Of a DNA stretch of 64,000 nucleotides, positions 3,198 through 33,695 are shown piece after piece. Position numbers and translations under genes: made by a program. The notes beneath the pieces are model-generated. The model was given only the letters and a program-made list of their open reading frames with translations, was not told the DNA's origin and searched no databases. Each line of letters begins with the position of its first letter. The stretch's first letter is position 1. This DNA comes from a virus (Duplodnaviria; Caudoviricetes): IMG/VR virus record IMGVR_UViG_3300032233_003524, positions 18,028 through 82,027 of that record. One strand, written 5' to 3'.

Positions 3198-4445
3198 TCA
3201 TTCAACTACTTTAGCATTTTTTACAATAAAATCAACTGTGTGCTCATCTCTAATTCGAGAGAAAAGTATTTGTAAATATCCTGTTCTACTCATTTCTTGC
3301 AAAACTTCATCTATTGAAGTTGGCAACTTATTATTTAATAATGTCCTCTTAACTATTTCAAAAGTCTCTTGATCAGTTAATTGGGCTTCTGGTTCAAGTT
3401 CACGTATTTTATCTAGAATAAGTGAAAGTTTTACATTTTTTTCAGACATTTCAATATATTTTTCTTTATCTACATCTGGCAAAGTTGCCCAATCTACTTT
3501 TGATGCATGTGCTAAATATTGGGCTTCTGACAAAGACATCCAATTAGGGACATCTATTTTATTATCTTCAACTAGTTTTCTAGAAACTGCAACACTTAGA
3601 TCTGATCTAAATTTATTATTAATTGTAGCTTGAGCAGAGCCCAAAACAAATTCTTTAAGTTCTGAAAAAGTATTTTTGCCTAATTTTGAAGCCATAGCGT
3701 CATCTAATGCGCAGGGAACTGTTTTTGAACCCATATGCAAAGTAACTTTAAATTGCACTGTTTTTCCTGCTAGAGATGGTAAGCCAGTTTCTGGAGCTAA
3801 TAAATTAAACTCTCTTGTTTCTCCAACCTTCATGCCTAATAAATTTTCATCAAAAGTAGGAAGCTGGCTTTTACCAACAGTAAGCATTTCATTTTCTGCT
3901 GTCAAGCTGTCTACGGCTTGACCATCTACAGAACCAGAATATGAAATCATTATACTGTCACCTGATTGAACAAAATCAGAATCAGTGTATCCAACAACTT
4001 CACCATATTTAATTCTAAGATCTTGAATTATCTTTTCTGACAATACTGATGCGTCTTCATCTTCATGAGGCTTTGGCACTTCTAAATGAAGATATGGCTC
4101 AAGTTGAAAATTTGGTTTAGTATAAACCTCAAATTCGCAGCTAAACTTTCCGTCACCAAGCAAAATCATTCCAAATTTTGGAGCACCATGAGGTTTAATT
4201 TCTTTTTCAAATAATGTATTGTGAAAAGCCTCTTCAGCCAATGCTCTTTTTAGAGAAGAGTCAATTTGTTCTCTATAATACATTTTAATAGAATCAGTTG
4301 AAGCTTTTCCTGGTCTAAATCCTGGAACTGGAGCTTTTTTAAAAATTGAAACTACTTCATTTCTTTTATTTGATATTTGTTCAGGGCTGGCTTGATAAGA
4401 AACTCTTAGTTTACATGGTTCAATTTCTGTTACATTAATTTGCAT
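3198..4445 (-). CDS. tig: Trigger factor (ribosome-associated chaperone/PPIase)
   Basis: N-terminal ribosome-binding signature VPGFRPGKA, FKBP-like middle domain, 415 aa, SD GAGGA. Confidence 0.93.
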   Translation of the reverse strand: MQINVTEIEPCKLRVSYQASPEQISNKRNEVVSIFKKAPVPGFRPGKASTDSIKMYYREQIDSSLKRALAEEAFHNTLFEKEIKPHGAPKFGMILLGDGKFSCEFEVYTKPNFQLEPYLHLEVPKPHEDEDASVLSEKIIQDLRIKYGEVVGYTDSDFVQSGDSIMISYSGSVDGQAVDSLTAENEMLTVGKSQLPTFDENLLGMKVGETREFNLLAPETGLPSLAGKTVQFKVTLHMGSKTVPCALDDAMASKLGKNTFSELKEFVLGSAQATINNKFRSDLSVAVSRKLVEDNKIDVPNWMSLSEAQYLAHASKVDWATLPDVDKEKYIEMSEKNVKLSLILDKIRELEPEAQLTDQETFEIVKRTLLNNKLPTSIDEVLQEMSRTGYLQILFSRIRDEHTVDFIVKNAKVVE

Positions 4446-4471
4446 TTTTCCTCTTTATTTTATTTAAATAA

Positions 4472-5260
4472 TTACCAATTGACTTGACCATATATCTTAG
4501 ATGGATCAAGTTTTTTTCTACCTTCTTCACATACTTCAACAAAGTCACAATATCCACAAAGTGGTGATGGATTTGCGGCAAATTCTTTTTCTGATAAAAT
4601 TTGCCTTGCATATTCTATATATTTATCTTTAATTTCTAATATTTGTGGAACAGAAAATTCTGTAGTAATATACTCAAAGTCATGTCTCAATAATATATAT
4701 GAGGCTCTTACTTTAGTAATTGTTGGGTCTTCAGTCAGCATAACATAAGCATAAGTTAATAACTGAAAAAAATCATTTTTTAAATATTTTTTATTTTTTA
4801 CTGTTTTGTAGTCGCATACGTGTGGAACATTATCAGCATCAATTTGAACTCTGTCAATCATTCCATTTAATATTATATTTTTATCGACTTCAAAGAAAAA
4901 ACTTTTTTCACACGCAGTTACATTTGCAGGTAAATTATTTTTTTTATCTTGACTTACTATTTGTAAATATCTGTTAATAATATCCCAGCATTCTTTTTTC
5001 ATTTCAGAAGTCATTTTATTTCCATATTCAGATAGTGCTGTTTTATAAGCAATACCCATTTCAATATTAAATGGTTTTTCTGAATGATCATTAATATAAG
5101 CATTATGAAAATCTTCTAAAACTTTATGACAAAATTTTCCAAATATATGATAATCTCTTTCTTTTTTAGGAAATTTTAAAATATATGAAAAATGAAATTG
5201 CTTTTTACATTGTAAAAAACATTTTGTCTTGCTTACAGACAATCTTAAATCTTCTGACAT
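4472..5260 (-). CDS. PD-(D/E)XK nuclease, RecB/AddB/Cas4-like with Fe-S type cysteines
   Basis: GKFCHKVLE, GMIDRV, DYKT, FQL..Y, C-terminal CGYCDFVEVC plus N-terminal Cys. Confidence 0.85.
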   Translation of the reverse strand: MSEDLRLSVSKTKCFLQCKKQFHFSYILKFPKKERDYHIFGKFCHKVLEDFHNAYINDHSEKPFNIEMGIAYKTALSEYGNKMTSEMKKECWDIINRYLQIVSQDKKNNLPANVTACEKSFFFEVDKNIILNGMIDRVQIDADNVPHVCDYKTVKNKKYLKNDFFQLLTYAYVMLTEDPTITKVRASYILLRHDFEYITTEFSVPQILEIKDKYIEYARQILSEKEFAANPSPLCGYCDFVEVCEEGRKKLDPSKIYGQVNW

Positions 5261-5289
5261 TATGTTATACTTTCTATTTTTAAAATGTG

Positions 5290-5314
5290 TTACATACTAT
5301 ATATCAGTATGTAA
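5290..5314 (-). promoter_or_regulatory. Extended -10 promoter (TGATATATA) within a 9-bp inverted repeat
   Basis: ttacatact-atatatc-agtatgtaa, about 30-50 nt upstream of ATG 5260. Confidence 0.5.
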
Positions 5315-5373
5315 TAATTAAAATATAAATGGCAAATTAAGTTTTATTAACTTCAAATTAATTATATAATATA

Positions 5374-6363
5374 TTAAAAAAGTACTCTTCTTGGAAAATT
5401 AACCCATTGAAATACAAATCCTGCACCTTTTTCTTTTGATACTGCAACTCCTGATAAATTACCATCAAATGGTCCAGTAGGTTGATATGGTGTTTTAGAA
5501 ATAATCCATTTATTAGTCCATGTATCTAAATAATAATAAGTCATGGAATTATCTCTTGGATTATAATGAGATCTTAAAAAAGTTCCATTAACAGGCGGAG
5601 CATCTATACCCGCTGTATAATAATTGTTTCCATCTCTTGCTTTATTAGGGTCTTCTAAAGAGAAGAATTGTCTATTTATATTTGGAGGATCTTCTGGATT
5701 TTCTTTTTCAAAATCTTGGAAAATTACAAATGCACGAGGATCAAATGTAGATGTAAATTGAGAAGTATATTCTGGAATAGCAGGTTCTTGCTCAATTTTT
5801 ACAGTGCCAGGTAATGTGCCTACGCCTATTTTAGATTCGCCTTCAGCGTTTCTAGTAGAATAAACTATACTATAATTTTCAATATTATATGGATTATTTG
5901 TATATCCTGTTTCATATCCGTCTCCATCAAACCCTGTTGCAGTAGAAGGTATTTCAGGATTATTTACAGTTATTCCGGCATCTCCAGGATTTAAATAGGC
6001 AGTATCTGGCTGAATTGGGTTAGTACCAAATGGATATAATCCAGGGATTGCACTTTCAGCCTCAGCATCTGTTGAAGAATGTGGAAGCCTAGCATTATTT
6101 AATATATTAGTAATATATGTTTCAGTAACAATTAAAGAGTAATCTATGCCATTAGTTGCAAGAACTTTTAAAGTAATAGATAAATTACTATTATATTGTA
6201 TATTTATTGGAGAGGTATAAATGTTACTAAATAAATCAGGCTCTGATCCATCTAATGTATAAAATATAGTAGATGGAATATTTGTAGATATAGATACTGT
6301 TTTAGGAATACCAAATACTACTTGTTCTTCAGATTCTGTAATTGAAACACTTATGACTGACAT
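5374..6363 (-). CDS. Protein with chitobiase/Fn3-associated beta-sandwich domain
   Basis: TIFYTLDGSEPDLFSNIYTSPI motif; rest unknown. Confidence 0.65.
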   Translation of the reverse strand: MSVISVSITESEEQVVFGIPKTVSISTNIPSTIFYTLDGSEPDLFSNIYTSPINIQYNSNLSITLKVLATNGIDYSLIVTETYITNILNNARLPHSSTDAEAESAIPGLYPFGTNPIQPDTAYLNPGDAGITVNNPEIPSTATGFDGDGYETGYTNNPYNIENYSIVYSTRNAEGESKIGVGTLPGTVKIEQEPAIPEYTSQFTSTFDPRAFVIFQDFEKENPEDPPNINRQFFSLEDPNKARDGNNYYTAGIDAPPVNGTFLRSHYNPRDNSMTYYYLDTWTNKWIISKTPYQPTGPFDGNLSGVAVSKEKGAGFVFQWVNFPRRVLF

Positions 6364-6364
6364 T

Positions 6365-6679
6365 TTATACCAAGTTAAGGAATTTAATATTTTTAGGTGT
6401 TAAGTTTCTTTTTAACATTAATCTATATATTTTATGAGCAGCTTTTCTAAATACTTTTGCCATTTGCAAATATAGATCATTACCTTCTCTTCTATACAGA
6501 ATTATGAACTGATTATAATATTCCAAAAGCTCTAAATTTGGAGATATTCCTGAATACTCTTTTTTTTGCATTTTCATTAATTTATTAACAGAATAAAACA
6601 ATAAAAAGTTATAGAACTTTTCTTCTCCTCCTGATAAGTACTTTGGTACGAATTCTTTTTTAAGTGTGTCCACAACCAT
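6365..6679 (-). CDS. Hypothetical protein
   Basis: 104 aa ORF abutting neighbours. Confidence 0.7.
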   Translation of the reverse strand: MVVDTLKKEFVPKYLSGGEEKFYNFLLFYSVNKLMKMQKKEYSGISPNLELLEYYNQFIILYRREGNDLYLQMAKVFRKAAHKIYRLMLKRNLTPKNIKFLNLV

Positions 6680-6703
6680 AATAGTTATGCAAAAATATAC
6701 TTA

Positions 6704-7294
6704 TTATTTTGCAATAATTAGATTATTTATAAATTTTCTTACTTGGTCATTAAGATCATCTAAAGTTCCATTATTGTTGACTATAAAATCAAATTCGGAA
6801 TTAGGGATATTATCCTGTTCGGTTTCACTGCTATGATTAATTATAGCACAATCATCTCTTGTTATTTTAAGAGTTTTGAATCCTTTATTTTTAATATGCC
6901 TAAATTCATTTAAAAATCTGCAGTCAGTTAAAATTACAGCGTTATGTGTTTTATTTTCATTTAAATTAAAATCAAATACATCTAACCATATATCTGGTTT
7001 ATAATTACGACCAAGACCGGTTCCAATATCAATCAATAATTGCCTAACAGTTAGCTGCTTTTGATCTTTAAAAGCATTTGGTATTACAGATGACCTATAT
7101 TCTGAAGGTCCTGTTAAATACTCTTCTGGCATGGTTGGAAACATTATTCTAGCTATAGCTTTTACAGGATCCGCAAATGCAACATAATTGCAAGAAATAA
7201 TATCATGCTTTGACAGCTCTTTTCCAATTATTTTGGCAACTGTATCTTTTCCTGATTTAGCTTTTCCGCAAATAGCTATTTTGTATTTGTACAT
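6704..7294 (-). CDS. Deoxynucleoside monophosphate kinase (phage type)
   Basis: IAICGKAKSGKDT P-loop, AFADPVK, RQLLIDIGT, TDCRFLNE, HSSE. Confidence 0.88.
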   Translation of the reverse strand: MYKYKIAICGKAKSGKDTVAKIIGKELSKHDIISCNYVAFADPVKAIARIMFPTMPEEYLTGPSEYRSSVIPNAFKDQKQLTVRQLLIDIGTGLGRNYKPDIWLDVFDFNLNENKTHNAVILTDCRFLNEFRHIKNKGFKTLKITRDDCAIINHSSETEQDNIPNSEFDFIVNNNGTLDDLNDQVRKFINNLIIAK

Positions 7295-7300
7295 ATAATC

Positions 7301-10719: not shown

Positions 10720-10722
10720 ATT

Positions 10723-11337: not shown

Positions 11338-11420
11338 AGTTGTGAATACTGGCTAAATAATTCTTTTTCCTCTGACAATAAAGATAATAAAAATTCTTTT
11401 GTTATAGTTAAGTTATTCAT
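11232..11420 (-). CDS. Small hypothetical protein overlapping the CHC2 gene
   Basis: ATG 11420 overlaps upstream stop (ATGAATAA coupling); MNNLTITKEFLL..LARHQGRLEVLQLLL. Confidence 0.45.
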   Translation of the reverse strand: MNNLTITKEFLLSLLSEEKELFSQYSQLCATYQVQIDPLVLARHQGRLEVLQLLLREKGIKI

Positions 11421-11916: not shown

Positions 11917-11931
11917 ATGTCCTCATAAATG

Positions 11932-12210: not shown

Positions 12211-12228
12211 AAAATCTCCTTATAAATC

Positions 12229-12765: not shown

Positions 12766-13284
12766 TTATTTTCCGCAACATTTCTTATATTTTTTATTTG
12801 AACCGCAAATGCATAAAGTGTTAGGTTTTGGTTTATTATTCAGTTTTACAGATTGAATTTTATGATCCATAAATAATACAGAATTTAAATGATCTAATTC
12901 ATGCTGACAAACAACTGCAATTAAGCCTGTAGCTATAAAAGAATTAGGATATTTTAAGTTATTACTTACATGAATTTCTTGAAATCTAGTAGTAGTTTCT
13001 ACACGTCCAGGAAATGATAAGCAGCCTTCATCTTTAAAAGTTTTAGGATCAAATCCATTTTGTAACTTACAATTAATTAAATTGATATTAATACTCCCAA
13101 GTCTAATAATAGCAATATTTTTAGCTATACCAATTTGTGGAGCTGCAAGTCCTATACCGTTTTTGCCTAAACGATTTGCATATTTTAATTCAGACTCTAG
13201 TGTATCAATTAAAGTGCCAACCTCATCTAATGACACTTCATCGCATTTTACTCTTAAAGCCTCTTCATTATTTGTAATAATCAT
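12766..13284 (-). CDS. def: Peptide deformylase with C-terminal SEC-C motif
   Basis: GIGLAAPQIG, EGCLS, QHELDH; tail PNTLCICGSNKKYKKCCGK. Confidence 0.93.
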   Translation of the reverse strand: MIITNNEEALRVKCDEVSLDEVGTLIDTLESELKYANRLGKNGIGLAAPQIGIAKNIAIIRLGSININLINCKLQNGFDPKTFKDEGCLSFPGRVETTTRFQEIHVSNNLKYPNSFIATGLIAVVCQHELDHLNSVLFMDHKIQSVKLNNKPKPNTLCICGSNKKYKKCCGK

Positions 13285-16623: not shown

Positions 16624-16986
16624 TTATCCATTTTCTACTTCTGCTGTTTTTCTCTTTCTTTTAAAGAATTTATTAGATGAATTTATTTCTAATAATTTTC
16701 TCTTCATTTCATTTCTTTTTCGTCTCTTCTTGTCAGAAGGCTTTTCATAAGATTGTTTTTCTTTATATAAAGAAAGAGTTCTTTCCTTTTGTACTAGTGC
16801 CCTAAAAGCCCTTAGAGCTTTATCAAAGCCATTGTTGTAAACTACCACTTCTAATGGTTTTGCAACTACTGGTTGTATATGGGAAAAATCTGTATTATCG
16901 CTGCTGACAACAGCTGTCTCGAATTCACCCCCTCTCAATGACTTTGATGGTTTATTTTTATATTTTTTAAATGTCTTTTCTTTCAT
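16624..16986 (-). CDS. rpsU: Ribosomal protein bS21 with N-terminal extension
   Basis: LEVVVYNNGFDKALRAFRALVQKERTLSLYKEKQSYEKPSDKKRRKR matches the bS21 pattern (V.V....E.AL+.F++.......l.e.+.+..YEKPS.+++++). Confidence 0.85.
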   Translation of the reverse strand: MKEKTFKKYKNKPSKSLRGGEFETAVVSSDNTDFSHIQPVVAKPLEVVVYNNGFDKALRAFRALVQKERTLSLYKEKQSYEKPSDKKRRKRNEMKRKLLEINSSNKFFKRKRKTAEVENG

Positions 16987-17014: not shown

Positions 17015-18328
17015 TCATTTAAAGTATTTATCAGTCTTGATTGACTTATTATTGACAATATGTTTTTCTTTAATAAGCTTCATCAATGCTTTATCTATAT
17101 CCTTCTCTGTTGGATTTTTTCTATTATTAGACAATGCTTCAAACATTGAAGAAATATAAATATCTTTTAAATAAGCATAAGAAAATTGATAAGATTCCGC
17201 ATACTTAGATAAGTCTCTGCACTTCTTTATGGATAATGTATTTCCAAACCATTTTTTTAAATATAAGAAAGCCATTTCTTGATTTGGTAATGGTATTTCC
17301 ATCTTCCTATCAAATCTAGATGGTCTATCAGTAATACTTGGTTTTAATTTTTTAATTTCATTAGCCGTTGCAACTACCAATAATCCATTTTTAGCAGAAA
17401 TGCCATCCATTAAATTTAAAAATGAAGATATGTCATTTTTTTCTAAAAGAGAATCTAAGTCTTCAAAATATAGTAAGGATGGACTTTGTTCTTCTGCATA
17501 AGCAAAAGCATCTCTGATAGCATCATCACTTGCTCCTGGAAATATAGTAACGGGTTTGAAATTATACATAGACATAATGGTCCTTATAATTGAAGTCTTA
17601 CCGTTACCAGGCTTACCATATAGCAAAAGACCTCTTTTCCATGGCATTTTATTTTTTAAATAAAAATCTTTTGATGAAAGAAATCCTTCTACTAAATTTT
17701 TTAATTCTAATTTAATATTTTGTGGCAAAAACAAATCATCCCAAGTTAAATCTTTATTATATGGAATGTCTTCGCCATCTATTACTCTAATATGTAAATT
17801 AGATCGGTCTCTAAGCTGAACCCAATTGTCAAATTCATTTCTTAATTTGATATAGGTTTCATAATTTTTATTAGATACAATTGTAAAAAAGCCAACTTCA
17901 TCTTCATTTTGATTTCCTTTATGAAATAAAGCGGCGTGAATAAATTCTAAATTTTTAGACTTTATAAGAAAAACGCCTTGAACAAAGAACTTTTCATATT
18001 CATGATCTGTTTTCCAAGAAATAACAGAATCTTTATATAGGCATTCAATACTTATATTTTTTTCCTTACAAAACTGTATAAATTGTCCATCAATTACAAT
18101 TCTATTATGAACAAATTTATTTAAATCATGCTTATCTTTTAAAGCAAAAGAAAAATTATTTAATCCCCAATTCATTAGTTCTATAAAATTAGAACTTGGT
18201 CTTGGTGGTAAACTATCTACTTGCTGATTATATACAATAAAGCTGCTTAATTTATCTGCAGATAAATGCTCTTGGTTTTCCATTTCTGTTGGTGATAAAT
18301 AATCTTGAATTTTTGTTTTACTTTGCAT
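17015..18328 (-). CDS. AAA+ ATPase (single domain, classic clade)
   Basis: LLYGKPGNGKT, YFEDLD, FLNLMDG, DRPSRFD. Confidence 0.9.
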   Translation of the reverse strand: MQSKTKIQDYLSPTEMENQEHLSADKLSSFIVYNQQVDSLPPRPSSNFIELMNWGLNNFSFALKDKHDLNKFVHNRIVIDGQFIQFCKEKNISIECLYKDSVISWKTDHEYEKFFVQGVFLIKSKNLEFIHAALFHKGNQNEDEVGFFTIVSNKNYETYIKLRNEFDNWVQLRDRSNLHIRVIDGEDIPYNKDLTWDDLFLPQNIKLELKNLVEGFLSSKDFYLKNKMPWKRGLLLYGKPGNGKTSIIRTIMSMYNFKPVTIFPGASDDAIRDAFAYAEEQSPSLLYFEDLDSLLEKNDISSFLNLMDGISAKNGLLVVATANEIKKLKPSITDRPSRFDRKMEIPLPNQEMAFLYLKKWFGNTLSIKKCRDLSKYAESYQFSYAYLKDIYISSMFEALSNNRKNPTEKDIDKALMKLIKEKHIVNNKSIKTDKYFK

Positions 18329-18356
18329 AATTAATATTTAACCGCTTCTTTCTATT

Positions 18357-20132
18357 TCAAAGTGAATTTGTATTTTTACATTTGGGGTAATTAGAGCATG
18401 CCAAAAATTTATTTCCAGTATTTTTTGCAGTTCTAGTCATCATTGGAGAATTACATTTATCGCATAATTTGCCACCATGATTTATATATGCGCCATCTAA
18501 TTCTTTTTTATATTTGGAATAAAAGTTTTTTAACATTTCAATATGATTAATTTTTCCTGCTTCAATTTCATCTAATTGCTGTTCCATTTTTGCAGTATAA
18601 TCATAGTCCATAAATGTGAAAAAATTACATAATGTATTTGTTATTTCCGATCCCAAATCTGTAGCATGATATACATTACCCTTTTTTTCTACATAATTTC
18701 TTAAAGTAATTTTGCCCAATAAGTCCGCATAAGTTGCTGGTCTTCCTATATTTTTATTAACTAACTCTTTAATTAGTTTGTCTTCTGAATATCTTGGAGG
18801 AGGCTGAGTTTGTTTTTTTTCTAATTTTACAGGAGAAGAGCCGTGTAAAGTACAAATATCACCTTCATTTAAATTTGGAATATCAATCTTGCTATCATCT
18901 GTAATTCCTAAAATTTCTAGAAAGCCTTTATATTTTAAAGCTTTTCCTGAAGATTTAATCTGTAATGAAGGATCATTTTTATGATATAGCGTAACCTTTA
19001 GAGTATCAAATATTGCTGGCATCATTTGACTAGCAACAAAATATTTCCAAACTGTTTCATATACTAATTTTTCATCAGGATTAATTATAGCAAAATTTTG
19101 GTTAGGTAAAAGATTTATATCTGATGGTCTGATACATTCATGAGCATCTTGAGCGGCATCTTTATTTTTAAATACATTAGCTTTTTTTGGAACATCATAT
19201 TTATTTTCTGATAAAAATTCTCTTAATTCTTTTAATGAGTCATCATTTACTCTTACAGAGTCGGTTCTAATATATGTACAATATCCTGACTCATATAAAG
19301 ATTGAGCTGCTTTCATAGTTCTATCAGCACTAAACCCATGTTTTCTAGACATAATTTGCTGTAGCGATGATGTAACTAGTGGCGGAGGCGGAGCTTTCTT
19401 TTCTTCTTCAGAAAGAATTTTACTTACAATATATTCTGATTTTCTATATGATAATTTTTTTTCAATATTTTTTGCTGTATTTTCATCTGTAATTTTATCG
19501 CTATATTTTGCTGTGAATGCCCCATTAGGATTGCTAATAGTAACTTGAATAGTCCAGAAATCTTCTGGGTTGAATAACCCAATTTCATGTTCCCTTTCTG
19601 TAACCATTCTAGTAACAACAGACTGGACTCTTCCTGCAGATAATTTTGGACCGAAAAAATTCATAAGAAATGGCGATGCAGTAAATCCGACTAAACGATC
19701 TAGTATTCGCCTTGCCTCTTGAGCATGAAATAAATTCATGTCAATATCTCTTACATTTTTTACAGCTTTTAATAGTTTATCTTTTTTAATTTCATTAAAA
19801 ACCATTCTTTTAATTGGTTTTCCTGTATCCTCTAATCTTTTTGCTAGATGCCAAGCAATAGCTTCTCCCTCTCTATCAGGGTCGCTTGCTACAAAGATTT
19901 GATCTACTTCTTTTGCCGCCTTAAGTAAATTATCTAATATATTAATTTTATCTTCCATTAATATATAATGAGGTTTAAAATTACTATTAACATCTACCCC
20001 TATGCCGTGAGCCCCTCCTTTAGCAAGATCTGTAATATGACCTTTGCTTGCCATAACAATATAGTCTTTTCCTAAATATCCTTGAATTTTATCGGCTTTA
20101 GATGGAGATTCAACAATTACAAGAGTTTTCAT
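18357..20132 (-). CDS. topA: DNA topoisomerase I (type IA)
   Basis: LVIVESPSKA, SDPDREGEAIAWH, SAGRVQS, catalytic TYIRTDS, C-terminal zinc ribbon; start set at ATG of MKTLV rather than the TTG at 20147. Confidence 0.95.
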   Translation of the reverse strand: MKTLVIVESPSKADKIQGYLGKDYIVMASKGHITDLAKGGAHGIGVDVNSNFKPHYILMEDKINILDNLLKAAKEVDQIFVASDPDREGEAIAWHLAKRLEDTGKPIKRMVFNEIKKDKLLKAVKNVRDIDMNLFHAQEARRILDRLVGFTASPFLMNFFGPKLSAGRVQSVVTRMVTEREHEIGLFNPEDFWTIQVTISNPNGAFTAKYSDKITDENTAKNIEKKLSYRKSEYIVSKILSEEEKKAPPPPLVTSSLQQIMSRKHGFSADRTMKAAQSLYESGYCTYIRTDSVRVNDDSLKELREFLSENKYDVPKKANVFKNKDAAQDAHECIRPSDINLLPNQNFAIINPDEKLVYETVWKYFVASQMMPAIFDTLKVTLYHKNDPSLQIKSSGKALKYKGFLEILGITDDSKIDIPNLNEGDICTLHGSSPVKLEKKQTQPPPRYSEDKLIKELVNKNIGRPATYADLLGKITLRNYVEKKGNVYHATDLGSEITNTLCNFFTFMDYDYTAKMEQQLDEIEAGKINHIEMLKNFYSKYKKELDGAYINHGGKLCDKCNSPMMTRTAKNTGNKFLACSNYPKCKNTNSL

Positions 20133-24883: not shown

Positions 24884-24908
24884 AAAATAATAATATTTTA
24901 TTAGTATT

Positions 24909-25292
24909 TTATTTCTTCCTGCTTATATATTTATATATTTTCCCATTATAATCTATTATAGAATTTTTTGTATTTTCGCTAATAAATTCTTCTTTATTTC
25001 TAGGAAATGAAGTTAGATCATAAAATATATTTGCCCCAAAGCATTCATAAATATGTGGTGAAAAATGTTCAAATCCTTTATCTTTTAGTAAAGGTATCAT
25101 TTCTTTTATAATTTCTTCATTGCCTATATAATCTTCATTATTCTTATTTAATAAAGCATTATTGCTAGCAGTTTCAAGTAAACTATCACAAATAGATTGA
25201 AATTCGCTTTGACTTATATTTTCTGGTCCTAAGAAATACTCAGGACTATAAGTTTCAAAATAACAATTAACAATTACAAATATTTTATTCAT
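24909..25292 (-). CDS. Hypothetical protein
   Basis: 127 aa ORF. Confidence 0.65.
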   Translation of the reverse strand: MNKIFVIVNCYFETYSPEYFLGPENISQSEFQSICDSLLETASNNALLNKNNEDYIGNEEIIKEMIPLLKDKGFEHFSPHIYECFGANIFYDLTSFPRNKEEFISENTKNSIIDYNGKIYKYISRKK

Positions 25293-25876
25293 AAGATTAT
25301 TTTATCAATTATTCCATATTTTAAAGCCTGTTTAGCATCCATCCATAAATCTTGTTGACAATCTTGTTTAAGCTTATCTAAAGAATGACCTGTATGATGC
25401 GCTAATATTTTCATAATATTATCATTATTTTCTTTTAAGAAATCATAATAATTTTTTGAATTAATAATATCTTGTCCTGGTAATGGAAAACCGAACTGAA
25501 TACCATGTATCATAATTTTTGATGATTTTAATGCATATCTGCCGCCTTTAGTTCCTGCCGCCAAAATAACAGCACCTGCAGAATAACATTTACCAGTACA
25601 AACAGTTTTAACTGGAGCTTTTATTAATTGCATAACATCATAAATGTTTGCTAGTCCAGAGGCATCTCCTCCATTAGAATTTAAATAAATTGTAATTGGC
25701 TCTTCACGATTTTCATTATCATAATATAATAATAATGCTGATAACTGTGCGGCACTTTCTTTTGTAATATCTTCAGATACAAAAATAACTCTATTTTTAG
25801 TTAATTTTATATAAGTATCTGAATATCCTCCCAATAAAGGAGTTTTAAACACTTCTGTTTCGTGATTTTTAGGCAT
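25289..25876 (-). CDS. clpP: ClpP protease subunit, catalytic triad intact
   Basis: LYLNSNGG, GKCYSAGA (Ser), IMIHG (His), QDLWMDAKQA (Asp). Confidence 0.9.
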   Translation of the reverse strand: MPKNHETEVFKTPLLGGYSDTYIKLTKNRVIFVSEDITKESAAQLSALLLYYDNENREEPITIYLNSNGGDASGLANIYDVMQLIKAPVKTVCTGKCYSAGAVILAAGTKGGRYALKSSKIMIHGIQFGFPLPGQDIINSKNYYDFLKENNDNIMKILAHHTGHSLDKLKQDCQQDLWMDAKQALKYGIIDKIIL

Positions 25877-25882
25877 AGATCC

Positions 25883-26467
25883 TCATTTATTGGAAGTTAC
25901 TACTTTGTCTATTAAACCGTATTTTACTGCTTGATTAGCGTTCATAAATACACGACGATCAAAATCGTCAGATACTTGCTTTAATGGTTTATTGCAGCCC
26001 TTGGCAATAATTTCCATCATTCTTTTATTGTCTATTAAAGATTGATCTAATATTTTTTTAGCGTCTGTAATATTAGAGTGAGTATACCAATCATGAACTA
26101 ATTGGCTAACTGCAATTACAGAATTTTTGGTAGCAAATCTAAGACCTGGAGTACCTCCGACTAAAATTATAGCAGCTTCATCCATTGCAGAGCCAATACA
26201 TATTGTTTCAATTGGCGCATTAATTACATCCATAACATCATAAATCATTAATGCATTTCGAATATCTCCTCCATCAGAATTAATAAATAATGTTATTTTA
26301 GATTCTGAATCTTCTGCATCTTTTAACAATAATGTGGCAATGATATCTGTTGCAAGCTCATCTGTAATTTGATTACAAATAAATAAAATTCTATCATTTG
26401 CTAATTTTTGATACACATCTACTGGAATGTCTCCAGCCTCTGTTGATTCAAGTACTAATGTATTCAA
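25883..26467 (-). CDS. ClpP-like subunit with degenerate triad (ClpR-like)
   Basis: DRILFI, LFINSDGG, A.KYGLID kept; Ser>Asp (GSAMDEAA), His>Ser (IAVSQL), Asp>Arg (DRRVFM). Confidence 0.85.
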   Translation of the reverse strand: MNTLVLESTEAGDIPVDVYQKLANDRILFICNQITDELATDIIATLLLKDAEDSESKITLFINSDGGDIRNALMIYDVMDVINAPIETICIGSAMDEAAIILVGGTPGLRFATKNSVIAVSQLVHDWYTHSNITDAKKILDQSLIDNKRMMEIIAKGCNKPLKQVSDDFDRRVFMNANQAVKYGLIDKVVTSNK

Positions 26468-26479
26468 TTTATTACCTCT

Positions 26480-26827
26480 TCAAGATTGTTTTTCAATTTC
26501 TCTATCTTCTGCGCATGATATGCATGTGACAAAATATGGATTAAATAATAATCTTTTTTCTGAAATTTCTTCTCCACAATCATCACACATGCCATATGAA
26601 TTATTATCTAACTTAGATAGTGCTTCATTTATTTGATTAATTTTATTTTTTGTTCTAGCATTAAATTTATTATTTAAATCAAAAATAAGTGCTGCTTGGA
26701 TTTCATCTACTTCATCTCCATCCATATCTACATCTTCTTTCAAAGCTAAATTTGCAGATAAAATTAGAGATTTTCTTTCTTCAAGAAGGGAATTTTTTAT
26801 TTTTTTTAAAAAAGTTTTTTTGAACAT
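26480..26827 (-). CDS. dksA: DksA/TraR C4 zinc-finger transcription factor
   Basis: GDEVDE tip, coiled coil, YGMCDDCGEEISEKRL..P....CISCAE. Confidence 0.88.
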   Translation of the reverse strand: MFKKTFLKKIKNSLLEERKSLILSANLALKEDVDMDGDEVDEIQAALIFDLNNKFNARTKNKINQINEALSKLDNNSYGMCDDCGEEISEKRLLFNPYFVTCISCAEDREIEKQS

Positions 26828-27996: not shown

Positions 27997-28529
27997 AATT
28001 CACCATAAATGTTATTATGATATTTTATAAAAGATAATAACAGCTCATGCTGTTCTTTATAATCTTCACACTTCTGCATAGAATACGCAATATCTTTTAC
28101 ATTTTCCATCCCTGATAAAAAAGATGCTTGAATTGCAATATTTGTTGGTAGCCATGTTTTATTATCGACACATAAAGCAATTAAAGAATCATTATCTATA
28201 TTTTTATTTATGCTATATGCTGAATATAATCCATATGAAGCTGAGCTATCCATGCTAACTAGCAATGCATACTCTAATACATCAGGATCTATTGAGCAAT
28301 CTCCTAGTAATATTTTTAATTTTACTTTTTCAAATGAAAGTTGAACTCCCCATATTGAATTTTTAATTATTTTATTAGACTCTTCGTCAGAAAATGATAA
28401 TTTTTCATTTAATAAATAATCTGATGATTTTAAACTTTTAAATTTTTTATTATTAAAATTTGATTGATTGATAATCATCAAATTTGAAAAAATATGATTT
28501 ATTATTTGTTCTGTTAATTGTTTATTCAT
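27993..28529 (-). CDS. Hypothetical protein
   Basis: 178 aa ORF, coupled overlaps. Confidence 0.7.
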   Translation of the reverse strand: MNKQLTEQIINHIFSNLMIINQSNFNNKKFKSLKSSDYLLNEKLSFSDEESNKIIKNSIWGVQLSFEKVKLKILLGDCSIDPDVLEYALLVSMDSSASYGLYSAYSINKNIDNDSLIALCVDNKTWLPTNIAIQASFLSGMENVKDIAYSMQKCEDYKEQHELLLSFIKYHNNIYGEL

Positions 28530-28849
28530 TTTAATACCACATTTAATTTTTGAATTTCATAAGCCAATAATCTTAAATCTGGTTTAGAAAAATCTAATTT
28601 TGGCAAAGAAGATAAAGATTCCTCAATATAAGATTCATAATTAAAATTACTTCCATTTTCTCTGCGGCTAGATAACTCTAACATGGAAGCTACCGCCAAA
28701 TCCTTACTATAATTTAAATACCTATTTGCAACAATGATTTGACAAAGCTTTTCAGAGGTGAATTCTGGAATTTTTTCTTTTATTAAATCTTCAGTTACGA
28801 TATCGTCATTTTCGAGTAATTCTTCATTTATATCATCAATATCAATCAT
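28526..28849 (-). CDS. Hypothetical protein
   Basis: 107 aa ORF, coupled overlaps. Confidence 0.7.
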   Translation of the reverse strand: MIDIDDINEELLENDDIVTEDLIKEKIPEFTSEKLCQIIVANRYLNYSKDLAVASMLELSSRRENGSNFNYESYIEESLSSLPKLDFSKPDLRLLAYEIQKLNVVLK

Positions 28850-29195
28850 TTTTTAATCTCTTTATATTGGGAGGTGTAGTTATCTTCACTCTTATATTTG
28901 GTATAATATATCCATTTTTTTTGCGACTGTAAAAATACAATTTTGTATTAAAAAATACATTATGAAAATTTATAATATCACCTAAAATAAGCAACTCCCT
29001 AAAACTTTGAAAAATTGTTTTTACAATAAAAGCTATTTCAGATTTAGAAATAATTGGATATCTTTGATGAATTCTATTAATTAAATCTTCATTATATTTT
29101 AAATTAATAGGCAATTCATTATCGATCAGATTTGAAACCTCTTCATGAGATGCTTCTTTAAAATAAAATGGCTTTACAGTTTTTTGTTTTTTCAT
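28842..29195 (-). CDS. Second divergent HU/IHF-like protein
   Basis: EDLINRIHQRYPIISKSEIAFIVKTIFQSFRELLILGDIINF resembles the IHF/HU N-terminal helices. Confidence 0.5.
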   Translation of the reverse strand: MKKQKTVKPFYFKEASHEEVSNLIDNELPINLKYNEDLINRIHQRYPIISKSEIAFIVKTIFQSFRELLILGDIINFHNVFFNTKLYFYSRKKNGYIIPNIRVKITTPPNIKRLKND

Positions 29196-29361
29196 ATAAC
29201 AATTGTACTCCCCCTATATATATATCCCCCTCTTATTTTGTCGAGATTTAGTATATTTTAGTATGAAATAAAATTTCATATATAAAACCAGTGCTGTCGC
29301 CAGCATACTAATACAATTTATAATATTGCCCAGTAAATTTATAACAAAATAATAATCTTTA

Positions 29362-29428
29362 AATGCGGTCTTGCAGCTTTGTCGTCACAAGATATTTTAT
29401 AATTTAATTATAAGATATAAGACGCATT
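29362..29428. other. Nested stem-loop element in divergent intergenic region
   Basis: Outer stem 29362-29372/29419-29428 (one bulge), 12-bp inner hairpin 29392-29418 (one G-U), small ttgt-cgtc-acaa hairpin. Confidence 0.35.
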
Positions 29429-29494
29429 ATTGAATAATGGATATAGTAATAAAAAGATATTGTGATGAATATCAACAACTATAAAGGTGTTATT

Positions 29495-29941
29495 ATGGAT
29501 AAATGTTGCAAAGTTGGTGCGTTATATGTAGCTTCATTAAAAGCTATGGCTTTAATTCATCAGCAGAGTCATTGGACTACAAGAGGTGAATCTTTTTATG
29601 GAGATCATTTGTTATTTGAAAAATTATATAATTCTGCATTAGAAGATTTAGATCTTGCAGCTGAAAAATTCATTGGGCTATTCGGTCTAGAATGTTTGAA
29701 TTATGAATTACAAGTAAAATTTTTATCAGATGTTTTATCTAGATATAAAAAATTATCTGGATCTCCATTAGAGCTATCTTTAGCAATTGAAAAAGATTTT
29801 ATAAAATTTTCTAAAGATGCTTATGATTGCTTTGAAAAAGAACAAACTATGACATTAGGACTTGATGACATGATCATGTCTATTTCTAGCAATAGAGAAA
29901 AGTCTCTCTATTTATTAAAGCAAGCTTTAAATCAATCTTGA
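29495..29941 (+). CDS. Dps/ferritin-like protein
   Basis: HQQSHWTTRGESFYGDHLLFEKLY..D.AAEK; start at ATG 29495 after SD AAGGTG. Confidence 0.85.
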   Translation: MDKCCKVGALYVASLKAMALIHQQSHWTTRGESFYGDHLLFEKLYNSALEDLDLAAEKFIGLFGLECLNYELQVKFLSDVLSRYKKLSGSPLELSLAIEKDFIKFSKDAYDCFEKEQTMTLGLDDMIMSISSNREKSLYLLKQALNQS

Positions 29942-30202
29942 TAGTAATGCATCTTTTAGTGATACATATACATTAATATTTTCTTTTAAAGAAATTTTAG
30001 TTAAAGTAAATAAAATCTCGCCAAACATGCGAGATTTTATTTTTTTTAGATCTTCTTCAGAAAAATTTTCATTATTATTAAGTGATTTATATAAATTTAT
30101 TTTTAATTCTAATTCAGAAATTATGCTATTTATTTCATCTGAAGAAATATTATCATGATTTTTTTCACATTTGTCCCATAAATGTTCAAAGTGAACAATC
30201 AT
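29927..30202 (-). CDS. Small protein with degenerate MazG-like fold
   Basis: FGEILFTLTKISLKENINVYVSLKDAL resembles GDLLF....A...ID.E.AL; SD GAGGAG. Confidence 0.45.
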   Translation of the reverse strand: MIVHFEHLWDKCEKNHDNISSDEINSIISELELKINLYKSLNNNENFSEEDLKKIKSRMFGEILFTLTKISLKENINVYVSLKDALLSRLI

Positions 30203-30204
30203 AA

Positions 30205-30399
30205 TCACTCCTCAAGATCTTTATTATCCATAACTGCTATTTGCAATTGCTCGTCGCCCTTATCTGAAATGAATACTAAAAATACAGCCCCATGATAACA
30301 ATCAATTAATACAGGCGCTTTTATTTTCCCTACATAAAAAGTTTGTCCGTCTACGTCTTTTCTAGCCTTTAAATCAATTACAACATTTTTATTAGACAT
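30205..30399 (-). CDS. Hypothetical protein
   Basis: Start MSNKNVV after SD GGAGA. Confidence 0.7.
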   Translation of the reverse strand: MSNKNVVIDLKARKDVDGQTFYVGKIKAPVLIDCYHGAVFLVFISDKGDEQLQIAVMDNKDLEE

Positions 30400-30414
30400 A
30401 ATAATCTCCAATTT

Positions 30415-31281
30415 TCAAATATTTTTAATATAATTAAACATACAATTTTTTAATGCTTGTTCTGAGGGCATCATTTGAAACCCTAAGTTATAAAGTTTTT
30501 CAGTATTAAGAATACAATTTGATCTTTTTGCTGATGTTAATAAATCTAGCTCATTTTCATCAATGATTTCAAACTTATGATTTGGAACATATTTTTTATA
30601 TTCATTCATTATTTGAGCAGCAGTTAATGGCTCTGGATTGGTAACATGAAATATTCCAGAATAAAATTTCTTATTATCAATGAACCAATCAACACATCGT
30701 TCCAAATCATCCATAAAAGTCACTGAATTGGGAATGTCAATTATTTTTTGATATCCAGTTAATTTATTTAACAAATTTCTAGGATTATTTTTGCTAGAAA
30801 TTGGCATTCGAATACGAAGTGTAGCGACATTACTCATATTTCCTAAAGCTAAGTCGCAAGCATATTTAGTTTTAGAGTAATAGGATTTAGGATTTGCAAA
30901 ATCTTCCTCTTTCCAGCCGCTATCTTTCATTGGAGGGTCTCCAATTATTATATCGTATTTTTTAATTGGCTCTTTGTTAGGAGATTTTCCAAAAAATATA
31001 CATCCAGATCCTATTTGGATCATATAAATAGAGCGTTTTGCACATTGTTCAGCTAATAAAACTGGTATTGCTATATTTGCTGACGCAGTTTCTTCTCTAT
31101 GCAATTCGCACCAATCTACATTGGGTCTTCCAGTTTTACCAATACAGTTAATAACTATATCTGGTTTATGTAAATCTAATATACGAGAAATAAAATTTGA
31201 ATCTGGAACTAATCTTTCTTCAAAAATAGAATACTTTAAATGATTGGCAACAAAACCATTGCCAAATGTTAGTACTTTCAT
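30415..31281 (-). CDS. NDP-4-keto-6-deoxyglucose 3,5-epimerase/4-reductase (NRS/ER, UER-type; RmlD superfamily)
   Basis: GKTGRPNVDWCE.H+EET..AN, GSGCIF, SYYSKTK, LRIRMPIS, PRNLL.K...Y.KIIDIPNS, TNP, RSNC.L..EKL. Confidence 0.85.
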   Translation of the reverse strand: MKVLTFGNGFVANHLKYSIFEERLVPDSNFISRILDLHKPDIVINCIGKTGRPNVDWCELHREETASANIAIPVLLAEQCAKRSIYMIQIGSGCIFFGKSPNKEPIKKYDIIIGDPPMKDSGWKEEDFANPKSYYSKTKYACDLALGNMSNVATLRIRMPISSKNNPRNLLNKLTGYQKIIDIPNSVTFMDDLERCVDWFIDNKKFYSGIFHVTNPEPLTAAQIMNEYKKYVPNHKFEIIDENELDLLTSAKRSNCILNTEKLYNLGFQMMPSEQALKNCMFNYIKNI

Positions 31282-31299
31282 TTGTCCTCTTATTATAAA

Positions 31300-32019
31300 T
31301 TAAGAATTTTTATAAAAATGATTATTAAGCCAATTTATTGCTTCATGAGTTCCGGCATCACTCCATAAACCATTAGCCATAGTCCAACTTAAATCATTTG
31401 CTGAATTGTATTGTTGAATAATGTCAGTAATTTCATATTCCCCTCTAGGGCTTGGTGTCAATTTCTGATAAAATTCAAAAAATTTCTGGTCAAATAAATA
31501 ACAGCCAGTAATAGCATAATTTTTATATGTATAATCAATCTCTTTAGGCTTTTCTACTATTTTACAAATTTTATTGTCAGAGTCAATAGAAGCTACGCCA
31601 AATCTAAAAAGCTCGGCATTATTGTGCAAGACAATTTGTGCGGAGCAGGTAGTTTCTTTATTCCAAAAGACTGGCTCTTCATAAATATTGTCACCTAAAA
31701 TTACTACAAATTTATCATCATCTAAAACGTGTCTTTTACAAAGATTTATAGCGTTAGAGATTCCTTTAGGTTCATTTTGATAGACGTAATTAAAATTTAA
31801 TCCGTGCTTTTCTCCATCCTTTAAATAACCTACTATTTGGGAAAAATGAGTACCGCCTAAAACTACAGTAACATTTTCTATCCCCATTTTTTTTAATGTA
31901 TTTAAAGGATATTCAATAATAAATTTTCCATTTATTGGCAATAATTGTTTATTAACAACTTGAGTTAATGGGTTTAATCTAGTACCTAAACCGCCCGCTA
32001 AAATTATTGCATTTTTCAT
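31300..32019 (-). CDS. rmlA: Glucose-1-phosphate thymidylyltransferase
   Basis: ILAGGLGTRLNPLT..NKQLLPI, Q.EPKG, LGDN, PSPRGEYEITD, W.DAGT; start reassigned to ATG 32019. Confidence 0.92.
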   Translation of the reverse strand: MKNAIILAGGLGTRLNPLTQVVNKQLLPINGKFIIEYPLNTLKKMGIENVTVVLGGTHFSQIVGYLKDGEKHGLNFNYVYQNEPKGISNAINLCKRHVLDDDKFVVILGDNIYEEPVFWNKETTCSAQIVLHNNAELFRFGVASIDSDNKICKIVEKPKEIDYTYKNYAITGCYLFDQKFFEFYQKLTPSPRGEYEITDIIQQYNSANDLSWTMANGLWSDAGTHEAINWLNNHFYKNS

Positions 32020-32026
32020 ATATTTA

Positions 32027-32035
32027 AATATATCA
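32027..32035 (-). promoter_or_regulatory. Extended -10 box TGATATATT, 7 nt before rmlA ATG
   Basis: Begins immediately after the infC stop codon. Confidence 0.55.
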
Positions 32036-32560
32036 TCAATTTCTACTAGGGGCAACGATCATCCACATAAATTTTCCTTCCATGGATATTTCTGGATTTG
32101 ACAAAATCAATCCATCTAACTGCTGAATTATCCAAATTAATTTATCTTTTGCAACTTGAGGATGAGTTATTTCTCTACCTCTAAATTTAATTGTAAATTT
32201 TACTTTATTGCCTTCAGATAAAAATTCTTTTGCAAAAGCCAATTTATGTAATAAATCATTCTCTTCAGTATTTGGTCGAAACACAATTTCTTTTAATTCT
32301 TGAATTTTCTGCTTTTTTCTGATTTCAGATTGTTTTTTCTTTTCATCATATTTGTATTTTCCAAAATCAATTATTTTACAAACTGGAGGCGAAGCCTTTG
32401 GATTAATTTCTACTAAGTCCAATCCTTGGCTTTGTGCAAGTTTTAAAGCATCACGAGTTGGCATTACACCAACCGACGTACCATCCAATTGAATTACTCT
32501 CACTTGTGGAACTTTAATTTGAAAATTAACTCTAATTCTATTTTGATTATTTGTTTGCAT
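32036..32560 (-). CDS. infC: Translation initiation factor IF-3
   Basis: VRVI..DG..VG......AL.LA...GLDLVEI.P.A.PPVCKIIDFGKYKY, KEIVFRP, KVKFTIKFRGRE. Confidence 0.96.
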   Translation of the reverse strand: MQTNNQNRIRVNFQIKVPQVRVIQLDGTSVGVMPTRDALKLAQSQGLDLVEINPKASPPVCKIIDFGKYKYDEKKKQSEIRKKQKIQELKEIVFRPNTEENDLLHKLAFAKEFLSEGNKVKFTIKFRGREITHPQVAKDKLIWIIQQLDGLILSNPEISMEGKFMWMIVAPSRN

Positions 32561-32610
32561 ATAAAATATTTAATAAATTATTTTATTAAAAGTGCCCTGT
32601 TGACGTATAT

Positions 32611-32638
32611 AATATATCATTTAAAAAATACAATGCAA
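32611..32638 (-). promoter_or_regulatory. Sigma70-like promoter for infC, TTGCAT-N16-TATATT with TGn extension
   Basis: Read directly. Confidence 0.5.
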
Positions 32639-32699
32639 GGCTCAAATATTTAAAATAATAATGTTAGAATATTTTTGTATATTTTATAAGGAGAAATTT

Positions 32700-33329
32700 A
32701 TGGCAGCCACACTAGTTCCTACTCAAAAAACATCGTATACAGTACCACAAATGATTGAAGGATTTATTAAAGGATGGTTTAAACAATTTAATGAAATCCC
32801 TAAAAAAGAATCAGTAGGAGTTATTTGGTCTCAAAATGCTATTGAAACAGGGTCTACTACAGCGATGTGGAATAATAATATTGGAAATGTAAAATATGCT
32901 CCAAGTAAAGACCCGAATCAAGATAATGATATTAAATACATGATGCTAAATAACGTTTGGGAGATAATAAATGGTAAAAAAATTATTTTTCAACCACCAG
33001 ATCCAGCAACTTGGTTTAGGTCATTTGACTCATTAGAAGAGGGCGTTGCATTTCATTTAAATTTTTTAAAAAATAAAAGATATAAAAATTCTTGGATAGC
33101 AGTAGAGGCAGGAGATCCTGAACAATTTGCTCATTTATTAAAACTAGCAAAGTATTATACTGCCGCAGAAGAAGATTATGCTAAAGGTATGAGATTTCAC
33201 TTTAATAAGTTTATTAAAGACAATACCTTTGATTTAGTTGTTGAAAAAATTAAAGAAACATATGATGCTGAAGGCTTAAAAAACAGTGTTGATTTATTCA
33301 ATCAAACTTTTAATCAACCTAATAGCTAA
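32700..33329 (+). CDS. GH73 (FlgJ/glucosaminidase-like) peptidoglycan hydrolase, putative endolysin
   Basis: QNAIETG..NNIGNVK, FRSFDSLEEG, RY, A.YYTA..DY; start ATG 32700 after SD AGGAGA. Confidence 0.75.
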   Translation: MAATLVPTQKTSYTVPQMIEGFIKGWFKQFNEIPKKESVGVIWSQNAIETGSTTAMWNNNIGNVKYAPSKDPNQDNDIKYMMLNNVWEIINGKKIIFQPPDPATWFRSFDSLEEGVAFHLNFLKNKRYKNSWIAVEAGDPEQFAHLLKLAKYYTAAEEDYAKGMRFHFNKFIKDNTFDLVVEKIKETYDAEGLKNSVDLFNQTFNQPNS

Positions 33330-33332
33330 TTT

Positions 33333-33695
33333 TGGTGGAGATAGGCGGCACTGCCCCGCCGTCCGCAATTATCCATGTATAAAATTCATTCACAAGTGTA
33401 GGATTTAATTTTATCGAAAATTAACCAAACGATGATTGAATTCGTTCAATCAAACTATCTTCTGTTTATTTCATAAATAATATCCGAAGAACAATACTAT
33501 TATTATTTTTAGTGGTTAATAATCTAAGAATACCAAAAATATCTTTTCTTAGACCATCCAAATTAAGCTGCGAGAGCCATTGGAGCAAATGCATTATCGT
33601 TGGCATTTAAACGTTGATTGTATTGATAACCCATTTACAATCATGAGGGACTTGCATTTTATCATTTCAAACCACGTCGAAACTGTTGTATCCCC
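33333..33695 (-). ncRNA. ssrA: tmRNA, one-piece, tag (A)ANDNAFAPMALAA
   Basis: 5' GGGGATA pairs with 3' TATCTCC-ACCA including the G3-U alanine determinant; T-stem GGCGG/CCGCC; resume codon GCC at 33604 to TAA at 33563; 363 nt. Confidence 0.95.

Follow-up and report, generated by a model that had tools for sequence, protein, structure and literature searches.

The closest described counterparts of the genes considered here come from huge phages, in which initiation factor 3 (IF-3), a ribosomal protein bS21 extended at its N-terminus, peptide deformylase (PDF), transfer-messenger RNA (tmRNA), SmpB, release factors and tRNAs have been reported, together with the proposal that these phages intercept the translation of their hosts (Al-Shayeb et al., 2020; PMC7162821). 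tRNAs, synthetases, initiation and termination have been the main subjects of earlier discussion of the translation genes of huge phages. The main text of PMC7162821 is silent on trigger factor, Clp proteins, chaperones and methionine aminopeptidase, and in its supplement trigger factor occurs solely as a product name assigned automatically, in no fewer than 12 of the first 200 GenBank files; in the huge-phage literature that we compared, neither trigger factor nor methionine aminopeptidase is mentioned, and we found no paper, the huge-phage papers included, that discusses a phage trigger factor. Here, we describe a stretch of 64,000 nucleotides (the window), corresponding to bases 18,028–82,027 of a single 82,027-bp virus record of the IMG/VR database (IMGVR_UViG_3300032233_003524, hereafter G000), and the genes for translation and proteostasis that it carries between positions 3198 and 33695 (window coordinates are used throughout unless another contig is named). 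A sequence-only reading of the window had named a trigger factor, a PDF, bS21, a pair of ClpP subunits, IF-3, a tmRNA and, further on, an Hsp20; all of them lie on the minus strand at the positions given below, and each is matched by a Pfam, NCBIfam or Rfam model, with PDF and ClpP scoring below the NCBIfam cut-offs. That reading considered the set notable, and this holds in part: IF-3, extended bS21, PDF and tmRNA were already published in 2020, while trigger factor and ClpP go unmentioned there. What is undiscussed in print is the trigger factor as a core phage gene, a trio of factors of the ribosomal exit site, a zinc-tailed deformylase and a ClpP/ClpR pair, all variants within a known phenomenon, and the window adds a further member to a clade that has been sequenced before. 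The most likely function of these genes is, in our opinion, the supply of maturation and quality control to ribosomes rather than the selection of phage messages, an assignment to which we give about an even chance of being right.

The phage origin of the window is shown by its relatives. Five further IMG/VR contigs, found through the trigger factor, and five complete genomes (CheckV-complete, 435–481 kb) were compared, and the counts for the six fragments and for the five complete genomes are kept apart. The five contigs share 49–68 of the 107 open reading frames (ORFs) of G000, in conserved order and with a mean identity of 38–57%. One of them, G002, has 68 of the 107 ORFs in collinear order and continues beyond the end of G000 into genes for the terminase TerL (2e-57), the portal (2e-51), a head-maturation protease domain and a tail sheath, so that G000, judged from G002, ends about 5 kb before the terminase would be reached. 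A complete genome, G007 (447,763 bp, CheckV 100%, GC content 31%), is collinear with the entire G000 contig (84 of the 107 ORFs) and carries 37 tRNAs. The terminase, portal, capsid-maturation and tail genes and the size above 200 kb that define a huge tailed phage are thus found in the collinear relatives. In the window itself, PHROGs matches comprise DnaE-type polymerase, SbcC, RIIA, HNH and NAD-ligase families, and an Rfam scan returned the tmRNA as its sole match and no rRNA. The 82-kb record has a CheckV completeness of 19% and no terminal repeats, and the window (GC content 28%) most likely represents about one seventh of a contractile-tailed huge phage of about 440 kb belonging to a Judaphage-type lineage. 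In fact, the trigger factor of GCA_902731525.1 (462,167 bp; SR-VP_PHAGE_CIR_35_26, Al-Shayeb et al., 2020) is 62% identical to that of the window, and trigger factors of the same family are encoded by GD_PHAGE_CIR_35_878, BM_PHAGE_CIR_35_55 (437,772 bp, circular) and SR-VP_PHAGE_40_16, the first and last of which are placed in the Judaphage clade by the supplement of PMC7162821. The Judaphage genomes resemble the window both in this protein family (N-termini MQIE.KE.E.CK...) and in the neighbourhood of PDF-SEC-C, SbcCD, deoxynucleoside monophosphate (dNMP) kinase, PD-(D/E)XK nuclease, tig and DnaE; the window differs from them as a distinct member, with a lower GC content and its own variable region at 35.5–64 kb. 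By its shared genes and synteny, therefore, G000 matches the Judaphage clade, and megablast of 25 kb of window DNA against GenBank phages gave zero matches. Assignment of a host failed: a scan of genome contigs gave only distant cellular trigger factors, and the published profile of the clade has no clear phylum.

That the contig is instead cellular or plasmid DNA, or that its genes are decaying, non-functional passengers, is contradicted by these comparisons and is regarded by us as extremely improbable. Two complete relatives are tagged as "provirus" in IMG/VR, and both trigger factor (PMC12934698) and translation genes (PMC7162821) can occur on large plasmids; against this stand the terminase, portal, head-protease domain and sheath of the collinear relatives, the circular genomes of 438–462 kb already published for the clade and the missing rRNA in the Rfam scan of the window, whereas decay is opposed by reading frames and catalytic motifs that are intact down to 26–35% identity. 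Judged by gene content and order, G000 is phage DNA, and the cellular genome fragment that the sequence-only reading had foreseen as its own undoing fails as an explanation.

From the start of G000 to about position 35,450 of the window the genes form one long, co-directional and collinear core block, and the remainder is variable. The block is mainly devoted to replication and repair, with a split DnaE, a PD-(D/E)XK nuclease, a dNMP kinase, SbcCD and a primase zinc ribbon, and further holds HNH, an MT-A70 methylase, a type IA topoisomerase, an FtsK-like ATPase, a UvsX-like recombinase and a DksA/TraR-like protein. Genes of translation and proteostasis stand one by one among these replication genes, separated from their neighbours by gaps of a few bases. 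Independent related contigs repeat both the genes and their order, a recurrence that, on the contigs aligned, far exceeds chance. Their arrangement identifies them as core genes at fixed sites with no dedicated operon-like module, and the earlier description of one 30-kb span holding them as a set does not survive. PDF, bS21 and ClpP are present in 6/6 fragments (ClpP as a pair in five) and in 5/5 complete genomes (as a pair in three), while IF-3 is found in 3/6 fragments, two contigs ending before its site, and in four of the five complete genomes, and a tmRNA scoring over the cut-off is found in three of the five. The toolkit had also been called near-complete, which overstates it, and here the complete relatives both subtract and add. 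SmpB (PF01668) is absent from all six fragments and all five complete genomes (control, 10 of 10 bacterial genomes), the ClpX model finds 0/5, with marginal AAA_2 matches only, and GroEL is likewise found in 0/5; the controls of the searches for SmpB, ClpX, GroEL and SecB behaved as expected. On the other side, methionine aminopeptidase (map, 5/5), a J-domain protein, tRNAs (37 in G007) and a release factor are found in the relatives.

The trigger factor (tig, 3198–4445, minus strand) is a protein of 415 amino acids with the three domains Trigger_N (67.7 bits), FKBP_C and Trigger_C of Pfam, and exceeds the NCBIfam tig equivalog cut-off (TIGR00115, 194.7 bits against 180.2). It resembles the bacterial protein (E. 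coli Tig) in its three-domain fold, in its length and in the ribosome-docking signature GFRPGK (PVPGFRPGKAS), which is kept in relatives: when 44 diverse members of the family are aligned, G42 and R44 never vary, and G46 and K47 hardly ever. The best PDB matches of its AlphaFold model (predicted local distance difference test, pLDDT, 90.7) are full-length matches to the free and ribosome-bound E. coli structures 1w26 and 2vrh, with template modelling (TM) scores of 0.54–0.62; the structure-based alignment gives about 23% identity to the E. coli protein, and the T. maritima trigger factors 3gty and 3gu0 are also among the fold matches. The phage protein differs from bacterial trigger factors in its setting, between a nuclease gene and DnaE, where the usual bacterial arrangement is tig-clpP-clpX. 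Furthermore, the best cellular trigger factors that we found are 25–31% identical to it, over parts of the protein only; the E. coli protein scores just 74.5 bits against it; and tblastn against GenBank phages gave matches of at most 38% identity (at most 31% where at least half of the query was covered), mostly to short unannotated records resembling host contamination. A search of 1.8 billion cluster representatives (E ≤ 1e-30, clusters at 50% identity) returned 161 trigger-factor clusters, whose identity declines smoothly from 57% to 26%, and at 32% and 26% identity the gene is still flanked by the PD-(D/E)XK nuclease and DnaE. As a control for circularity, 8 long contigs were picked by terminase alone, none of them in the trigger-factor list: tig is over the equivalog cut-off in 7 of the 8, and in the eighth the terminase is 11 kb from the contig end, so that the tig site falls off the contig. 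The lineage is widespread, with at least 171 IMG/VR contigs recovered by terminase in addition to the 161 clusters. Its conservation, its fixed neighbours and its low identity to cellular proteins mark the trigger factor, as far as sequence can tell, as a core gene that a large phage lineage has long passed on vertically, and not as a recent pick-up from a host.

A chaperone of this kind could also work away from the ribosome. The trigger factor, the Hsp20, the ClpP pair and a J-domain protein (DnaJ-type, 322 amino acids, PF00226 65 bits; G000:C1:9536–10504, minus strand, 7.5 kb before the window start), the last present in 6/6 genomes (the five complete relatives and G000), might mainly be dedicated helpers of virion assembly for a few structural or giant phage proteins, largely off the ribosome, comparable to T4 gp31 and its client, the T4 capsid protein. 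The relatives do encode proteins of 1,715 and 1,983 amino acids, besides a large capsid module; holding full-length clients and aiding assembly are known activities of trigger factor (as in 3gty and 3gu0); in a megaplasmid study, the trigger factor carried by the plasmid is assigned to giant proteins for secretion (PMC12934698); and the phage protein is far diverged from the cellular ones. On the other hand, the docking-loop residues G42, R44, G46 and K47 are among the very few invariant positions of the family, the genes lie in the replication block, outside the structural module, and the deformylase, the aminopeptidase, IF-3, bS21 and the tmRNA are left unexplained, so we consider such an assembly role unlikely.

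The deformylase (def, 12766–13284, minus strand) matches PF01327 with 88 bits and ends in a SEC-C motif (PF02810); its NCBIfam equivalog score, 92.1 bits, is under the cut-off of 103.95. The catalytic motifs GIGLAAPQ, EGCLS and HELDH are intact and invariant in the clade. Alignment to solved PDFs stops at residue 142, and in the predicted structure a confident core is followed by a disordered stretch (140–149) and by a compact non-helical unit (150–172), which is the SEC-C motif. The E. coli enzyme docks on the ribosome by a C-terminal helix, a feature of type 1B PDFs that is not family-wide; in the phage protein no helix of this type is found, and the SEC-C motif is there instead. The tail, with the pattern CxCGSxKKxKKCC, is conserved in 4 of 5 relatives, and at least 120 related clusters carry both the PDF and the SEC-C domain, the motif being kept in nearly all. 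Two phage PDFs of solved structure, from cyanophage S-SSM7 (3uwa) and Vibrio phage Vp16 (5mtc), both among the sequence matches of the deformylase, are equally compact, with intact catalytic motifs and no C-terminal helix, whereas the window protein adds a flexible linker and the SEC-C zinc motif past the core. As a side observation, infC lies immediately upstream of def in a deeper subclade (G005:113666–114684; G009:192745–193840) and the def of G005 is without the tail, a distribution which suggests that, within the lineage, either def acquired the SEC-C tail or infC changed its place.

The C-terminal tail of SecA belongs to the same motif family, PF02810, and has the same layout, in which a small basic zinc knuckle comes after a disordered linker; the difference is that the phage motif is fused to a deformylase and that of SecA to a translocation ATPase. 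On its own, the metal-binding domain of SecA sediments together with 70S ribosomes and is crosslinked to them close to uL23 (Jamshad et al., 2019; PMC6620043). By analogy, the tail may tether the phage deformylase at the tunnel exit, replacing the docking helix of the E. coli type. A SecB gene is found in 0/5 complete relatives, and our literature search returned no paper that joins "peptide deformylase" with "SEC-C motif".

A type I methionine aminopeptidase is encoded by all five complete relatives (Pfam M24; the three copies scanned score 213–218 bits against an equivalog cut-off of 171) and lies about 145 kb from tig in G007; this enzyme was seen in the complete relatives, the genome of the window phage itself being incomplete. 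From these assignments the lineage owns three nascent-chain factors of the tunnel exit, namely deformylase, aminopeptidase and trigger factor. A virus can therefore long retain all three of these tunnel-exit enzymes and chaperones, along with a rescue RNA and a protease core, and the clade offers a testable system both for the question of whether viruses alter co-translational protein maturation and for that of whether a SecA-type zinc knuckle is a portable ribosome tether.

Rescue is represented by a one-piece tmRNA (33333–33695, minus strand; Rfam RF00023, full length, 64.8 bits against a gathering threshold of 47). It has the G3-U pair, an acceptor stem GGGGAUA/UAUCUCC-ACCA with encoded CCA, the resume codon GCC, a non-canonical T-loop and the tag ANDNAFAPMALAA, which is conserved with relatives; with its ANDN... 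sequence, this tag has a proteobacterial look. Syntenic tmRNAs are found in G002, G006, G007 and G010. ARAGORN missed the tmRNA of the window even at lowered thresholds, as did a first loose genome scan, probably because of the unusual T-loop, which is shared with the tmRNA of G007, also missed by ARAGORN. A sigma-70-like promoter match on the same strand (TTGACA-16-TATATT, 11/12; 33710–33737) ends 14 nt upstream of the tmRNA 5′ end; the total of such matches in the region is no higher than in shuffles, and the match is only suggestive.

Degradation is represented by two adjacent genes of the ClpP family. The first (25289–25876, minus strand; Pfam 168.9 bits) has an intact Ser-His-Asp triad that aligns with solved ClpP and is a diverged member, with 164.5 bits against the NCBIfam ClpP cut-off of 249. 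In the second (25883–26467, minus strand; Pfam 160.1 bits) the triad is lost, with Ser replaced by Asp, His by Ser and Asp by Arg in comparison with solved ClpP; these substitutions are conserved in G002 and G003, and the second copy of G004 is also triad-less, with different residues at the Ser position. By sequence, the second copy keeps the ClpP fold and is predicted to be catalytically inactive, like ClpR. Mixed ClpP/ClpR protease cores are known from cyanobacteria and plastids, and the phage tandem likewise joins one triad-intact and one triad-less subunit; it differs in being phage-encoded and in that no gene for a partner ATPase was found. The deeper subclade (G005, G009 and G010) has a single ClpP copy, and that of G005 keeps the triad. 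A role of the pair as prohead protease was considered and rejected as unlikely: the scores of both copies are far higher with cellular ClpP models than with the head-maturation model, and G002 has a separate head-protease domain.

Two AAA proteins of the window were considered beside the pair. A classic AAA ATPase adjoins bS21 (17015–18328, minus strand; PF00004 68 bits, weak PAN/FtsH-like NCBIfam matches), is conserved in that position and has Walker A, Walker B and arginine-finger regions; it was rejected as the ClpP partner, neither a pore loop nor an IGF loop being seen. The second AAA+ ATPase (45466–46578, minus strand) has no ClpX match, and an IGF-type ClpP-docking loop was seen in neither protein. 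The absence of a Clp unfoldase from the five complete relatives implies that a host ATPase is required and, with SmpB also absent from them, both rescue and degradation must borrow host parts. The clade differs in this from some of the huge phages of PMC7162821, which carry SmpB of their own.

Taken together, these genes can be read as follows; the comparisons above show their identity, intact motifs, conservation, synteny and phage origin, and it is each binding step, its timing and the benefit to the phage that we infer. An ancestor would have acquired bacterial genes for initiation (IF-3 and bS21), for co-translational maturation (the deformylase and, elsewhere in the genome, methionine aminopeptidase), for folding (trigger factor and the J-domain protein), for rescue (tmRNA) and for proteolysis (the ClpP/ClpR-like pair), and the lineage would have kept them at fixed sites in the replication gene block. 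During a long infection, in which hundreds of proteins, some very large, have to be made, the phage would sustain ribosome-associated maturation and quality control on the ribosomes of its host as host expression fades. Its trigger factor would dock at uL23 through the conserved GFRPGK loop, its deformylase would be tethered close to the tunnel exit by the SecA-type zinc tail, and its tmRNA would use the SmpB, alanyl-tRNA synthetase (AlaRS) and EF-Tu of the host and add a tag ending in ALAA, after which the phage ClpP/ClpR core, with a host Clp ATPase as motor, would break down the tagged chains. We favour this supply role on account of the intact catalytic and docking motifs, the deep conservation, the placement with replication rather than virion genes and the dependence on host partners.

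Several points weigh against it. Compatibility with the ribosomes, SmpB and ClpX of the host is assumed. In E. coli the trigger factor is in molar excess over ribosomes, so a mere supplement would need very high expression, and the phage protein, at about 23% identity to that of E. coli, is diverged enough that it could have a new range of clients. IF-3 and bS21 act on the choice of start sites, which would fit a selective role better than supply; some complete relatives do without IF-3 or tmRNA, so not all of the steps are required; and placement in the replication block is a weak sign of early timing. It is also possible, though in our view rather improbable, that the exit-site set of the phage (trigger factor, aminopeptidase and zinc-tailed deformylase), together with bS21 and IF-3, displaces the host factors to give a "phage-fitted" ribosome, with the tag and the ClpP/ClpR core tuned to the phage proteome.

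A selective role would concern the initiation genes first. The bS21 gene (16624–16986, minus strand; PF01165 51.7 bits against 27, TIGR00030 48.2 against 28.95) encodes a 45-residue N-terminal extension that alignment shows to be conserved in relatives, and IF-3 (infC, 32036–32560, minus strand) has both domains, IF3_N and IF3_C (Pfam, 105.4 and 85.2 bits), with an equivalog-level score (TIGR00168, 193.7 bits against 60). Phage IF-3 and the extended bS21 might reprogram the 30S subunit toward phage mRNAs, the downstream factors completing a customised "phage ribosome". In bacteria both proteins are established at start-site selection, and the phage infC begins with ATG rather than with the AUU that serves autoregulation in E. 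coli. The N-terminal extensions of huge-phage bS21 have been proposed to bind RNA (PMC7162821). Shine-Dalgarno-like motifs precede only about one third of the phage ORFs (32% of starts); the same figure is a 4–5 fold enrichment over the background of 7%, which speaks against a takeover, and by this measure the phage start sites look ordinary. Moreover, G004 and G008 lack IF-3 and keep bS21, and we know of no mRNA selectivity of deformylase, aminopeptidase, trigger factor or ClpP, nor of any means by which deformylase, trigger factor and ClpP would tell phage from host chains. The sequence-only reading had proposed that the phage remodels host ribosomes in favour of its own AT-rich mRNAs, a rationale that fails because relatives with a GC content of 41–44% carry the same gene set. 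A takeover of the whole pathway is thus unlikely, with a selective action possible for IF-3 and bS21, and supply is kept as the preferred reading of the set.

Still another explanation takes in the neighbourhood of the tmRNA. A Thg1-like protein of the tRNA-His guanylyltransferase family (34091–34912, minus strand; PF04446, 8.2e-18), with homologs in G002, G004, G005 and G007, is encoded one small ORF away from it and is a possible enzyme of tRNA 5′-end maturation or repair. The set might consist of counter-defence spares, replacing host translation parts hit by phage-induced shut-off or by defences such as tRNA and tmRNA nucleases, ribosome-targeting toxins and protease-based abortive infection. 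In addition to the repair enzyme beside the tmRNA, this would agree with the 37 tRNAs, the suppressor tRNAs and the release factor of relatives and with the RIIA-like and RelA/SpoT-like genes of the window; on the other side, we know of no defence system that targets trigger factor, deformylase or methionine aminopeptidase, and the sequences show nothing that points to resistance variants. We consider this explanation very unlikely, and the supply of maturation and quality control is again preferred.

The rest of the window adds several minor features. Directly upstream of the ClpP pair, a DksA/TraR-type zinc-finger protein (26480–26827, minus strand), conserved in relatives, is a candidate regulator acting at the secondary channel of RNA polymerase. 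The DnaE-type polymerase, a single ORF in G002, G003, G004 and G007, is divided in G000 into two ORFs (C1:15625–16869 and 17127–19829) with a 257-bp gap, the second part occupying window positions 3–1802, for which a split gene, an intervening element and an assembly error are all conceivable causes. The variable region (35,500–64,000) is almost without homologs in G002–G005 and is partly matched by G007. It includes the Hsp20-family small heat-shock protein (43932–44339, minus strand; PF00011 56 bits, weak NCBIfam Hsp matches), which is sporadic (2/6 genomes), adenylosuccinate synthetase (47747–48880), RIIA (49717–51825), UvdE (57493–58422), an NAD ligase (62085–63959) and sugar-modification genes.

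Decoding of the TAG codon may also be peculiar in this lineage. No tRNA genes were found in the window; in relatives, tRNA(CUA) amber suppressors lie between the tmRNA and infC, a class I release-factor domain is present in four of the five complete genomes, and that of G007 belongs to an RF2-type release factor with SPF and GGQ motifs. In the G000 contig TAG ends just 6 of 99 ORFs, and codon 10 of the RelA/SpoT-like ORF is an in-frame TAG. These observations (related sites at window 59425–60114, minus strand; G002:11405–11481; G007:212881–213035 and 425360–426439) hint at partial read-through of TAG in the lineage.

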